A stretch of 30,025 nt of DNA from Promethearchaeota archaeon. Lineage in GTDB: Archaea > Asgardarchaeota > Lokiarchaeia > Sigyniarchaeales > SOKP01. A program made the translations under genes and the position numbers. The notes below the pieces were generated by a model, which was given only the letters and a program-made list of their open reading frames with translations, ran no database searches and was not told where the DNA came from. Positions 2,194-17,870 of the stretch are shown here, one piece after another (within the stretch, counting starts at the first letter, position 1; each line of letters starts with the position of its first letter). The stretch lies in NCBI GenBank assembly GCA_011364925.1, contig RDOA01000046.1:1-30025 (forward strand), in the 5' to 3' direction.

Positions 2194-2289
2194 ATGTTTT
2201 CGAAGATTAATACTTCAATTAGCTTGGATAGAAAATTTTTACTAAGAAAAGTATTACTTCGTGAATTATTACAGTTATTATCATTATAA
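2194..2289 (+). CDS. Putative Leu-rich leader peptide of leuS (MFSKINTSISLDRKFLLRKVLLRELLQLLSL*)
   Basis: Read manually: ATG 2194 to TAA 2287-2289. 10 of 31 codons are Leu, 9 of them in the last 16, arranged as tandem pairs. Ends 120 nt upstream of leuS on the same strand. Confidence 0.65.
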   Translation: MFSKINTSISLDRKFLLRKVLLRELLQLLSL

Positions 2290-2370
2290 GCGATACAAAT
2301 CCGCTTGACCTTTTTCTTTTAAACTTTTAACGGATTTGTTTGCTGTGAGCGTAAAATTTAATTGAAAAAG
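2288..2370 (+). promoter_or_regulatory. Putative attenuator RNA structure with U-rich terminator tract
   Basis: ACAAATCCG (2295-2303) pairs perfectly with CGGATTTGT (2331-2339). A competing stem is AAGCG (2288-2292)/CGCTT (2302-2306). TTTTTCTTTT lies at 2311-2320, and CTTTTTC (2310-2316) is complementary to GAAAAAG (2364-2370). Confidence 0.5.
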
Positions 2371-2409
2371 ACTACCGAGCGTTTTTGTTCTAACTAAAAA
2401 AGAATAAAG

Positions 2410-5310
2410 TTGTCAAAAATTATGTACGACCCACAACGAATTGAACGAAAGTGGCAAGATAAATGGGAACAGGCCAGAATATTTGAAGCTAATCCAATTT
2501 CTGACAGAGAAAAAGTATTCATTACTTCTCCTTATCCCTATGCATCTGGACCGGCACACATCGGTCATGGACGGAGTTTCGTAAATGGCGATGTTTTTGC
2601 TAGGTATTACCGAGCTAAAGGATACAATGTGTTATATCCTATGGCTTTCCACATTACAGGGACACCTGTATTAGCGATATCCTCATCCATTGAGAGAGGA
2701 GAAGAAAATATGATTGCGAGGATGATTGAATATGTTTCGCTACATACCCATGAGGAAAAAAAGGTGAAAGAGATTGTTGAGAGTTTTGTGGAACCTTGGA
2801 ATGTAGTAAATTACTTTTCGAGCACTTATAAAAGTGATTTTAAATCGATTGGAATGAGCTTAGACTGGAGGAGAGAGTTCACAACCGGAGATAAACTTTA
2901 TAATAAATTGATTGAGTGGCAATTCCACAAGTTATACGATAAAGGCTATTTGGAAAAAGGAGAATACCCAATTTTATATTGCCCTCGAGATGGAAACGCT
3001 GTAGGTGAAGATGACATCTCAAGAGGAGACGAATTAAATTTGGATATAAACGAGTACACATGCATAAAATTTCCGTTTGGAGATGGCTATTTAGTTCCTG
3101 CTACATTAAGACCAGAAACTATTTATGGTGCCACCAATCTGTGGATAAATCCTTCGGGGATATATGTAGATGCCAATGTGAACGAAGAGAAGTGGATTAT
3201 CTCTGAAGAGGCAATCCATCTACTAGTTAATCAAAATAAACTTGTAAGGGTTTTGAGGAAATTTAAAGGATCAGAATTAATCGGAAAGAAAGTTAAGGAA
3301 TTGTTTGGAGATCGCGAACTGTTAATCCTTCCAGGAGAATTCGTTGATACTTCAGTAGCTACTGGAGTTGTCTATTCAGTTCCCGCACACGCTCCTTATG
3401 ACTATATCGCTTTGGTTGATTTGCAAAAGGATAAGGATATGCAAGAGAAATTTAAATTAGATAAAGAAGAAATCGAGGGAATCAAGCCCATTCAAATAAT
3501 TGATTTACCTGGTTTCGAAGACTTTCCAGCTAAAATATATTGCGAGAGGTTTAAAGTCGAATCTCAAGAAGATTTTGAGAAACTAGATAATGCCACTGCT
3601 GAGAATTATAAGAATGAATTCTATAACGGAGTTTTAAACGATAAGTGTGCAGATTATGAATCTTTAAAAGTTAGCGATGCCGTCGTCAAAGTTGTTGAAG
3701 AATTAATCGAGAATGGTAAGGCAGACAAATTATATCTTCCCATTACGAAGGACCTCAAATGTAAATGTGGTGAACGCATAATTGTATCAATTTTAAAAGA
3801 TCAATGGTTTCTTAATTATACTGCAGGGAATTGGAAAGAAAAAGCTTTTGAGTGTTTAAATAGCATGGATATCGTGCCTAAAAAGTACCGAATGAACTTT
3901 GAGCACATTTTTAATTGGTTAGAAAAAAGGCCATGTGCCAGAAAGAGGGGATTAGGCACTAAGCTTCCGTTTGATAAAGATTGGATAATTGAATCCCTTA
4001 GTGACTCTACAATATATATGAGCTTCTATACCATAATTCACATATTGAAGGAGAATGGAATTCAGCCCGACCAACTCGTTATTGAATTTTTTGATTATGT
4101 CTATTTAGATATAGGAGATATTCAGGAAGTGTCTAAAAAGACAAAAATTAATGTGGGATTGTTAAAACAAATGCAAAAGGAATTTTTCTATTGGTATCCC
4201 GTTGATCATAGGCACACCGCTATCATGCATATCTCAAATCATTTAAGTTTCTACATTTTTCACCATGTAGCAATATTTCCAAGAAAGCATTGGCCAAAAA
4301 TCATTTCCCTCATAGAGCCAGTAATAATTGAAGGTCAAAAAATGGGTAAATCGATCGGAAATGTGATAGCATTAGCGGACATTCAGCAAAATTATTCAGC
4401 AGATTTATTTCGATTCTACATCTCTCACAGTGCTGACTTTGGTATTATGGTAGATTGGAGAGAAAAGCAAATTCAAACAGTTAAGAACCATATTATGAGA
4501 TTCTACAATTTTTTCGTGGAAAATGTCATTGCTATTAAGGAAGTTGAAGGAGACATTGCACACATAAACTCTAAATATTCTAAAATCGTCCTATCCAAAT
4601 GCATCAATAAATTCATTGAAGCAGAAAAAGGTCTAGAGGAATTAAATCTAAGAAAATACCTTCAGTTATCTTTTTACGAAGTTTTCAATTTGCTTCAAGA
4701 GTATAGTAAGCACACAGATAACGAACGCGATAAGTTAGAGGTATATAAAATTGTATTTCCAGAATGGATAAAGATTCTATCCATCACAATGCCGCACTTA
4801 TGCGAAGAGCTTTGGGAAAAACTGGGTAAGGATAACTTCATATCAACAGAGGTTTGGACTGATTTTAACATCGACTATACTAACATTAAACTTGAACGAG
4901 AGTTCGATTATGTTTCGGATGTAGTAGATGATATAATGAATATTTTAAAAATCGTGAAATCTAGCAGCCCAGAAAACATATATTTATATACAGCACCAAA
5001 ATGGAAGCAGGATGTGTACGAGATAATAAACTCTAAAAAAGGAGATTTCAAGGAAATAATGGAACAGTGTAAATTTAGCAACGATTTAATGAAAAATAAA
5101 AATTTAATCTCGTACATCAAAAGTCAAATCAAAGAAAGAGTTTGGGAAAAAGAATCAAATTCGTTGAAAGAAGAGCTTATACTAGAGGAATACAGAAGTT
5201 ATATCGAAAAAAGAATTATGGCTAAAATCCACATTAATTCAGAATATGATCCGAAAAACCGACTAGCTAAAGCGGTTCCGTTCAAACCAGCGATATATAT
5301 AGATCTTTGA
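2410..5310 (+). CDS. leuS: Leucine--tRNA ligase (archaeal/eukaryotic type)
   Basis: PYPYASGPAHIGH (HIGH), DWRREFTT, CP1 editing motifs ATLRPET and SVPAHAPYD, WIIESLSDSTIYM, KMGKS, C-terminal A.PFKPAIY. Start is TTG 2410 or ATG 2422. Confidence 0.97.
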   Translation: MSKIMYDPQRIERKWQDKWEQARIFEANPISDREKVFITSPYPYASGPAHIGHGRSFVNGDVFARYYRAKGYNVLYPMAFHITGTPVLAISSSIERGEENMIARMIEYVSLHTHEEKKVKEIVESFVEPWNVVNYFSSTYKSDFKSIGMSLDWRREFTTGDKLYNKLIEWQFHKLYDKGYLEKGEYPILYCPRDGNAVGEDDISRGDELNLDINEYTCIKFPFGDGYLVPATLRPETIYGATNLWINPSGIYVDANVNEEKWIISEEAIHLLVNQNKLVRVLRKFKGSELIGKKVKELFGDRELLILPGEFVDTSVATGVVYSVPAHAPYDYIALVDLQKDKDMQEKFKLDKEEIEGIKPIQIIDLPGFEDFPAKIYCERFKVESQEDFEKLDNATAENYKNEFYNGVLNDKCADYESLKVSDAVVKVVEELIENGKADKLYLPITKDLKCKCGERIIVSILKDQWFLNYTAGNWKEKAFECLNSMDIVPKKYRMNFEHIFNWLEKRPCARKRGLGTKLPFDKDWIIESLSDSTIYMSFYTIIHILKENGIQPDQLVIEFFDYVYLDIGDIQEVSKKTKINVGLLKQMQKEFFYWYPVDHRHTAIMHISNHLSFYIFHHVAIFPRKHWPKIISLIEPVIIEGQKMGKSIGNVIALADIQQNYSADLFRFYISHSADFGIMVDWREKQIQTVKNHIMRFYNFFVENVIAIKEVEGDIAHINSKYSKIVLSKCINKFIEAEKGLEELNLRKYLQLSFYEVFNLLQEYSKHTDNERDKLEVYKIVFPEWIKILSITMPHLCEELWEKLGKDNFISTEVWTDFNIDYTNIKLEREFDYVSDVVDDIMNILKIVKSSSPENIYLYTAPKWKQDVYEIINSKKGDFKEIMEQCKFSNDLMKNKNLISYIKSQIKERVWEKESNSLKEELILEEYRSYIEKRIMAKIHINSEYDPKNRLAKAVPFKPAIYIDL

Positions 5311-16784: not shown

Positions 16785-17870
16785 TTATTCATTTTTATAA
16801 ATTGGGATAAAATCAAAAACTTTCTCAACAATTTTCCTTATCCCTTCAATTTTACCACTTTTTTTATCAAAGTCAAGGGTAGACTGGAAATTTTCAACAA
16901 ATTCCTCGTTAAACCTTTTTAAAGCATACCTTAACGATTTTGTCGATTTTGAAGCGATTAGAACTGAAGCAATAGAATTGGTTTTATCGTGGTGTATAAG
17001 AAGGACTGCTCTATCCATCTGTATTTCCTGAACTTCACCCTTTTTTAAGATATCATCCAATACATTTCCAATTGCTTGGAGCATCATAGAAAACATATCT
17101 TCTTCGAGTTTTCCCACTTTTGCCCAATCATACTGAAATATTGCAACACTCTCAGATGTATTGACAACAATAATTCTGTAAGCTTTAAATGGTAATATAT
17201 AGATAATTCTTGGATCCTTTAATATGACGATTATATTAATTATAGCCCCAATACTGTGAACAATGAACGCAATTGAATTAAAAGTCCAATAAAATGTTCC
17301 GAGTGCATACATAATTGCTGTTACTACAGAAAAAAGCGTGCTTCCGAAAAATAGCAAGTTAGTTAATCGTTTCAATGATGCTGGTGCTTTTCTCCACGTC
17401 TGATAACTCCATATATAATACATACTAACATAGTAAAATATAAAGATAATCTGAGCTATTCGGAGAATCCCTTTATTATGAACACCGTAACCAATTATTA
17501 TATCCCAATTATCCTCTGGTTTCATAAAAAACGTAAGATAGAATACGATCACTTCGAGGACAACAAGAATCGAGATTTTTATTGGATTAACATGTTCTTT
17601 CCTTACTAACTCAATGAAAATCATGATGCATGGAACAGCTAATAGTTGGGGGATTATAGCAAAAGCCATAATTGGAATAGAATAATAATAATGGGCTGCT
17701 GCATCCATGAACCAAAAAACCGCATACAGTAACCACATCGCGGAAAATAGCAGTATAAGTCGATTTTTTTTCCTTATCGAATAAATAAAAGTTATAATAC
17801 CTCCGATTGCTAATAACGTTCCTGCTATAGATGTGGTTAATACTAACAAGAAATTATCGAAGTTTTCCAA
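16785..17870 (-). CDS. 7-TM membrane protein with C-terminal longin-like domain (paralog A)
   Basis: Same architecture and many identical motifs as 15697-16770. SD GGTGAT 8 nt before the TTG start, and a 14 nt gap to paralog B suggests an operon. Confidence 0.75.
   Translation of the reverse strand: MENFDNFLLVLTTSIAGTLLAIGGIITFIYSIRKKNRLILLFSAMWLLYAVFWFMDAAAHYYYSIPIMAFAIIPQLLAVPCIMIFIELVRKEHVNPIKISILVVLEVIVFYLTFFMKPEDNWDIIIGYGVHNKGILRIAQIIFIFYYVSMYYIWSYQTWRKAPASLKRLTNLLFFGSTLFSVVTAIMYALGTFYWTFNSIAFIVHSIGAIINIIVILKDPRIIYILPFKAYRIIVVNTSESVAIFQYDWAKVGKLEEDMFSMMLQAIGNVLDDILKKGEVQEIQMDRAVLLIHHDKTNSIASVLIASKSTKSLRYALKRFNEEFVENFQSTLDFDKKSGKIEGIRKIVEKVFDFIPIYKNE

Follow-up and report, generated by a model that had tools for sequence, protein, structure and literature searches.

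The window analysed here, a 30,025-nt stretch of DNA, comes from a 3.9-Mb genome of the Lokiarchaeia/Promethearchaeia. On its plus strand it carries leuS (2422-5310), coding for an archaeal-type leucyl-tRNA synthetase (LeuRS; TIGR00395, 950 bits against a cut-off of 648), preceded by a BRE/TATA-like archaeal promoter (2151-2166), a leader ORF that ends in a run of leucine codons (2194-2289), and a region that can form alternative RNA helices. This LeuRS is present in 69 of 135 genomes of the family. We compared 89 distinct leuS upstream regions from family genomes and metagenome loci, and aligned a set of 64 upstream regions with less than 90% identity (the 64 homologs). The conserved leuS start is likely ATG 2422 rather than TTG 2410, which lies in frame upstream; an ATG occupies the position equivalent to 2422 in 61/64 homologs, and an in-frame stop lies six or fewer codons upstream of it in 20/64. 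Two minus-strand ORFs lie farther upstream. One, of 167 aa (1536-2039), is divergent from the leader promoter, has no NCBIfam match and is replaced by other genes in relatives; the other, of 91 aa (215-490), resembles, by eye, a cold-shock-domain protein that carries an RGG-like tail.

A leucine-run leader upstream of leuS

In 53/64 homologs the distance from the first TATA-like hexamer to the leader ATG is 28-34 nt, and 31/64 have a spacing of 34 nt. Given this spacing, transcription probably starts within ~10 nt of the ATG, and the transcript would be leaderless or nearly so. The leader ORF itself has 31 codons and a TAA stop at 2287-2289. Ten of its codons specify Leu, seven of them among the last 11 (2254-2286); at the genome frequency of 10%, seven Leu in 12 codons would be expected with P = 5e-5. 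Each of the 89 distinct orthologous loci with enough upstream DNA has a leader of this kind, usually of 26-32 codons and with a Leu run at its end, together with the RNA that follows it. The leader was absent before leuS orthologs of other families (L019, L020) and before more distant LeuRS matches.

Across the 64 homologs, Leu makes up 60% of the last 10 leader codons (10% genome-wide), being enriched also at -7, -8 and -11; the run abuts the stop codon, with 92-95% Leu at positions -2 and -3. All six synonymous Leu codons occur, UUA contributing 74% of them compared with 44% genome-wide, and variability within the ORF peaks at the third codon position. At one locus (L010:1358-1369) the stop has shifted three codons downstream, into the 5' strand of the helix described below as P1, and the distance from the Leu run to P1 is kept. 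The spacing from leader stop to leuS start varies between 112 and 161 nt, with frames 0, 1 and 2 occurring 24, 21 and 19 times. A stop-codon readthrough or frameshift element was rejected, the relative frame of leader and leuS not being fixed.

Co-evolving alternative helices

A preliminary description of this region had placed all of its motifs correctly: a stem A (2288-2292/2302-2306), a stem B (2295-2303/2331-2339) enclosing a U-tract (2311-2320), the complementary segments CTTTTTC (2310-2316) and GAAAAAG (2364-2370), a GAGCGT repeat (2347 and 2377), and a weak stem (2384-2391/2401-2408) before TTG 2410. Within the single sequence, stem B alone stands out: when the region is shuffled, a 9-bp inverted repeat of this kind arises in 2.8% of cases, a 5-bp stem comparable to stem A in 85% and a repeated 6-mer like GAGCGT in 92%.

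Comparison of the homologs extended stem B to a helix, P1 (2290-2303/2331-2343), which starts directly after the leader stop and closes a 27-nt U-rich loop. P1 is 93% paired in the 64 homologs, and 8 of its 12 pairs show double changes. A second, long helix, P2 (2302-2381), is built from the segments 2302-2307/2376-2381, 2310-2316/2364-2370 and 2319-2329/2352-2361, with a possible extension at 2295-2299/2384-2388. It pairs both U-tracts of the P1 loop and displaces P1 in the predicted fold (-22.1 vs -15.2 kcal/mol here); its pairing is 76% overall and mostly 84-97% for the core pairs. The pairing of CTTTTTC with GAAAAAG, noticed earlier as a possible alternative, is the conserved core of this helix. 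A third hairpin, P0 (2192-2271), joins the first codons of the leader to the Leu-run region. Its consensus helix of 11 bp is 88% paired, with one pair seen as five pair types; in this genome it is weaker and register-shifted (-15.3 kcal/mol).

Since the alignment is conserved and independent double changes are few (4-9 per helix) for a single-pair test, covariation was assessed at the level of whole helices, by comparing cognate with swapped strands in 32 phylogenetically independent pairs of homologs. Cognate strands were favored 7:0 for P1 (p=0.008) and 26:5 for P2 (p=1e-4), whereas stem A gave 5:7 and two controls 9:10 and 8:5. By these phylogeny-aware tests, P1 and P2 co-evolve at the helix level. 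Taken individually, neither the inner segment of P2 nor the extension that reaches the P1 5' strand was supported (p=0.29 and 0.32). For P0 the ratio was 9:2 (p=0.033); its covariation is less secure, this signal being no stronger than that of a control inside the ORF (15:5, p=0.021). The covariation that had been called for across leaders was thus seen in the helix swaps of P1 and P2 and not at single pairs: when these were scored by a home-made G-test modelled on R-scape and using a tree null, none reached significance, the best helix pairs having E 1.5-17. RNAalifold recovered P1 only from the alignment and nothing in the leader, and the 128-nt region folds modestly better than its shuffles (z -1.6; z -2.5 with the leader included).

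The true competitor of P1 is therefore P2 and not stem A, to which the preliminary description had given that role. Stem A is present here (2288-2306), and lies outside the conserved element, its pairing in homologs being identical to that of shuffled columns (65.7% in both). The GAGCGT repeat is likewise not a conserved feature, its copy at 2377 being part of the P2 3' strand, and the weak stem before TTG (2384-2408; -3.3 kcal/mol here) is not conserved either: the median local dG is ~0, and 7/64 homologs are at or below -2 kcal/mol. Simultaneous formation of P1 and P2 as a full pseudoknot appears topologically doubtful, as it would thread a P2 outer helix of ~14 bp through the closed loop; a partial P1+P2 pseudoknot is conceivable.

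Predicted dependence of the fold on ribosome position

In archaea, ribosome protection extends 15-16 nt from the P-site codon (PMC7261190), and we folded the homologs under a 12-nt downstream footprint consistent with this value, for transcripts that had emerged as far as the last nucleotide of P1. In this model P1 formed in 64/64 homologs when the A site was four or more codons before the stop, in 40/64 when the ribosome was at the last codon, and in 0/64 when it was at the stop, where the P1 5' strand lies under the footprint. The proposal that a ribosome at the stop codon abolishes stem B and one stalled upstream permits it was thus borne out in the model. A stall at the last Leu would half-block P1, and an assumed footprint 3 nt longer shifts the threshold by one codon. 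The P2 core begins where the footprint of the stop-codon ribosome ends, and P2 forms with the first 13 nt masked. With its 3' strand available, P2 prevails at equilibrium in most homologs at any ribosome position and, therefore, the switch must be kinetic.

In the P1 state the U-tract is ~87% unpaired, a value that falls to 22-36% after emergence of the P2 3' strand. The earlier idea that stem B guards the U-tract accordingly fails as far as base pairing is concerned: since P1 leaves the tracts unpaired, its protection must be steric, a route that we retain as a proposal. Protection by base pairing would, in these folds, come from P2, which forms later than P1. In the 64 homologs no segment of the leader pairs with the leuS start region (-35..+15) above controls, and the accessibility of the leuS start is 0.56-0.58 in all ribosome states.

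The U-rich loop as a candidate termination signal

The P1 loop contains two U-tracts (2311-2320 and 2325-2328; together 2310-2328) that constitute a candidate aCPSF1/FttA signal. Their columns are 83-97% U, and 49/64 homologs have two or more U4 tracts. Opposite a G, the tract positions retain U rather than C (36 U vs 5 C), which is not the pattern in P1. According to the FttA structure, the optimal site combines U-rich RNA at -30 to -36 with a U at -23, both counted from the nascent 3' end (PMC11616081). The tracts at 2312-2318 and 2325 would fit this geometry with polymerase at ~2347, that is, with the P1 3' strand just leaving the hybrid. On a home-made score of FttA geometry (8 points), 55/64 loops reached 7/8, a value seen at 38% of convergent gene ends, in 6% of coding windows and in 2/63 of the regions after P2, the last scoring like coding DNA. 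Cleaved 3' ends are predicted, from this geometry, at 2325-2328.

The genome encodes aCPSF1 (TIGR03675, 885 bits, G000:C21). In M. maripaludis, Lokiarchaeal aCPSF1 complements and responds to the number of U4 tracts, and archaeal terminators generally need no hairpins (PMC8716108). The suggestion that the tract is an oligo-U termination signal thus gains from its FttA-type geometry and from the presence of the nuclease. There is no terminator-like site with a G+C-rich hairpin and U-run at the leader, and a U4 tract is missing from the 30 nt beyond P2 in 51/64 homologs; U-runs directly follow P2 in this genome and in some relatives.

Copies of the element before other genes

A covariance model found further copies of the element, and the refined model gave 233 matches in 117/134 family genomes. 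In the other Asgard families searched, matches were weak and leaderless; such matches outside the family (including G028) were rejected as elements, since they resemble ordinary gene ends or chance. Within the family, 71 further elements that we cut out have a leader ORF whose stop lies at most 3 nt before P1 or inside the P1 5' strand, most of these leaders also having upstream TATA-like boxes; one strong model match (L276) has no leader by the criteria used. In 52 copies not belonging to leuS, P1 is 95.5% paired, with a C-G/A-U switch and a swap ratio of 9:0, and the P2 ratio is 15:6.

The control codons vary with the downstream gene. The element precedes three LeuRS lineages, one of them bacterial-type, and all have Leu-run leaders; in the two lineages beyond the main set, Leu makes up 0.60 and Ile 0.00 of the last 10 leader codons, like the main set. 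Representatives of the bacterial-type and the second archaeal-type LeuRS under the element are L359 (G043:C27), L285, L292, L295 and L302, and LeuRS types are patchily distributed across the family. A fusion gene that joins an FrhB/FpoF-like Fe-S flavoprotein to a TrmB-type winged helix (L330:2379-3827 and L333:2103-3533) has leaders with Ile/Val runs, containing Ile at 0.46 and Val at 0.20. Genes for small proteins of 45-70 aa have either Val/Leu-run leaders or mixed leaders, in which the mean number of distinct residues is 17.3 (14.1 at random) and rare residues are spread along the whole length; in one class of mixed leaders the stop is shifted into the P1 5' strand, as in L010. N-terminal leader residues are conserved across leader classes. 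Of the arguments for leucine sensing, this agreement between control codons and target gene among LeuRS genes of independent derivation is the strongest; it comes from loci related by descent and is no formal statistical test.

The present genome has two tandem copies on the minus strand of one contig (G000:C58:18191-18295 and 17566-17664; L238, L350, L337). One leader is of mixed residues and the other is Val-rich; downstream of each lies a 59-63 aa protein with a GGAGGTG box, and the pair is convergent with an ORF of aminotransferase type. At L308:434-625, L290:451-585 and 837-1004, and other family loci, the small proteins form families that have the motif P-G/A-E-x-E-x-E-D. These families have 33 representatives among 1.8 billion, and searches of Pfam, PDB and Atlas gave no assignment. 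At L341 (G110:C71), an element with a Leu/Val leader precedes a small protein and an amidohydrolase-family gene. We know of no link of FrhB-TrmB or the small proteins to amino-acid supply. The valS-, ileS- and cysS-like genes of this genome have no obvious cognate leader before them. Two further leaders in it, a 16-codon one with three Trp (G000:C34, minus strand at 3818) and a Phe-rich one of 29 codons (G000:C81, plus strand at 50388), do not match the RNA model. ARAGORN found 12 tRNAs in this genome.

Proposed mechanism and alternatives

That leuS is subject to regulation sensed by a ribosome on the leader is, in our judgement, very probable. From the ORF, the helices and their conservation, the geometry of the tracts and the codon-target match we infer a leucine-sensing attenuator in which ribosome stalling, termination, FttA and the roles of P2 and P0 would combine as follows. 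A nearly leaderless transcript would be translated through the short leader ORF. With ample Leu-tRNA, the ribosome would reach the stop, cover the P1 5' strand and stay there behind the advancing RNA polymerase; the U-tracts would then leave the polymerase as naked RNA, and aCPSF1/FttA would cleave near 2325-2328 and terminate transcription. With scarce Leu-tRNA, the ribosome would lag in the Leu codons and P1 would close as its 3' strand emerged, denying FttA a continuous single strand. P2 would form after P1, base-pair the U-tracts and lock the decision to read through. We propose further that later ribosomes could not reopen P2, since its core starts at the end of the terminating ribosome's footprint; P0 may limit re-initiation on the leader. 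We give this reading, with FttA cleavage in the loop when a stop-codon ribosome blocks P1 and with P2 as a later lock, about an even chance. The likeliest polarity is the one already put forward in the preliminary description: a stop-codon ribosome would lead to termination and a stalled one to read-through. The mechanism would depend on functional coupling of transcription and translation, direct evidence for which is scarce in archaea (PMC13681488, a 2025 review).

Two alternatives keep the helices and change their meaning. P2 could be the OFF fold, a stop-codon ribosome blocking P1 (then an anti-P2 helix) and P2 causing termination, pausing or nuclease processing at or after 2381-2390. The strong co-evolution of P2, the start of its core at the footprint end, its formation with the first 13 nt masked and the U-runs that follow it here and in some relatives would suit this arrangement. 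However, the region after P2 lacks a U4 tract in 51/64 homologs and scores like coding DNA, archaeal terminators are generally hairpin-independent (PMC8716108), and the U bias of the loop would be left unexplained; we regard P2 as the OFF fold as unlikely. The polarity could also be reversed by dwell time, with P1 displaying the U-loop to aCPSF1 (OFF) after a fast ribosome has left, and a stall on the last Leu codons blocking P1 in favor of P2 (ON). P1 does leave the tracts unpaired and P2 does pair them, and the Leu run does abut the stop (92-95% at -2 and -3). Yet stalls at -2 or earlier keep P1 intact under a 12-nt footprint, and Leu at -7, -8 and -11, like the spread rare residues of mixed leaders, would give the wrong output, which makes a reversal very improbable.

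The output might instead be post-transcriptional, ribosome position setting either a cut by aCPSF1 or another RNase in the U-loop of finished mRNA or the start of leuS translation. A nuclease could act on released mRNA with no need for coupling, P0 and P2 would make sense on a long-lived mRNA, and mycobacterial leaderless poly-Cys ORFs act on translation (10.1101/834739). Against this, pairing with the leuS start region is not conserved and its accessibility does not change, the distance from stop to start is as variable as its frame, and P2 at equilibrium would hide the U-tracts in most states, so that we consider such an output improbable. Finally, the leader may be no gauge of leucine at all but a nascent-peptide arrest sequence, a small membrane peptide or an RNA bound by a protein or by LeuRS, its Leu run arising from P0 pairing and AT bias. 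Part of the run indeed pairs in P0, UUA is in excess, N-terminal residues are conserved across classes, and Leu codons are reportedly irrelevant in the actinobacterial LEU element (PMC1262725). But six synonymous Leu codons are used, the conserved N-terminus is explained by P0 pairing at wobble positions, and the run follows the downstream gene, with Leu and without Ile at three LeuRS lineages and with Ile/Val elsewhere. We therefore think such another role unlikely. Returning to the leucine-sensing attenuator, its extension to the paralogous loci as a modular, ribosome-sensed device of one Lokiarchaeia family, a single aCPSF1/FttA-gating RNA chassis in which the control codons can be exchanged (Leu at leuS, Ile/Val at FrhB-TrmB, nearly all residues at the small proteins), is a tentative proposal, its chances somewhat below even.

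If this reading is correct, amino-acid attenuation by cleavage-triggered termination would operate in relatives of the eukaryotic host lineage, and functional transcription-translation coupling in this Lokiarchaeia family would be implied. The element, at ~230 nt, is a compact object for asking whether ribosome position controls FttA, and its paralogs point to the small-protein family as likely amino-acid-starvation genes.

Comparison with known regulators

Leader-peptide attenuation is a textbook mechanism in bacteria. The Asgard element has its general features, namely an ORF with cognate control codons, alternative helices and, by the folding model, a choice of fold by ribosome position. 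For the archaeal trp leader of Methanothermobacter, Xie and Reeve are said to have described a repressor and a two-codon leader, with attenuation not shown. In the literature that we covered, largely open-access papers, we found no established case of archaeal leader-peptide attenuation. No Rfam family matched at its gathering score (Phe_leader, 18.9 bits vs a cut-off of 55, E 0.97). A T-box riboswitch was rejected for want of an Rfam match and of UGG after P1 in this genome's clade, a ribosome-binding-site-sequestering translational attenuator for want of pairing to -35..+15 of leuS above controls, and a classical intrinsic-terminator attenuator of the trp/leu/phe type for want of a G+C hairpin with U-run and, in 51/64 homologs, of U4 after P2.

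With bacterial leader attenuators such as E. coli pheM-pheST and leuL and the predicted Streptomyces leuS attenuator (PMC1262725), the element shares a short ORF of cognate codons before an aminoacyl-tRNA synthetase gene (pheST, leuS) and alternative helices set by ribosome position. It differs from them in its archaeal host and promoter, its nearly leaderless transcript and the location of the U-tract inside the loop of the first hairpin. The LEU element of actinobacterial leuA (PMC1262725) also has a Leu-run leader ORF and alternative or pseudoknotted folds, but its Leu run pairs with the Shine-Dalgarno box, whereas the Asgard run pairs with the leader's own 5' end, and we saw no sequence kinship between the two. 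Known aCPSF1/FttA U-tract terminators of archaea (PMC8716108, PMC11616081) share the two U4 tracts with FttA-type spacing; they are constitutive gene ends, whereas the Asgard signal lies in a leader and would be conditional.

Rho-dependent leader attenuation is known from mgtA/mgtL and E. coli tnaC. In the leader of Salmonella corA (PMC13675443), which is of this type, alternative structures and a ribosome jointly determine whether a termination factor can reach a single-stranded signal, as is proposed here. The factor would differ, being the nuclease aCPSF1/FttA, as would its signal, which is rich in U; a nuclease could also still cut once the polymerase had moved on, a possible reason for the second helix. 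The mycobacterial Cys 'ribulon' (10.1101/834739) similarly comprises leaderless short ORFs at several loci that end in a run of the sensed residue; its poly-cysteine ORFs sequester the ribosome-binding site, whereas the Asgard element has no conserved pairing with the start region and its control codons vary by locus. By analogy, the closest kinds appear to be factor-access attenuators such as corA, together with these leaderless poly-Cys ORFs.
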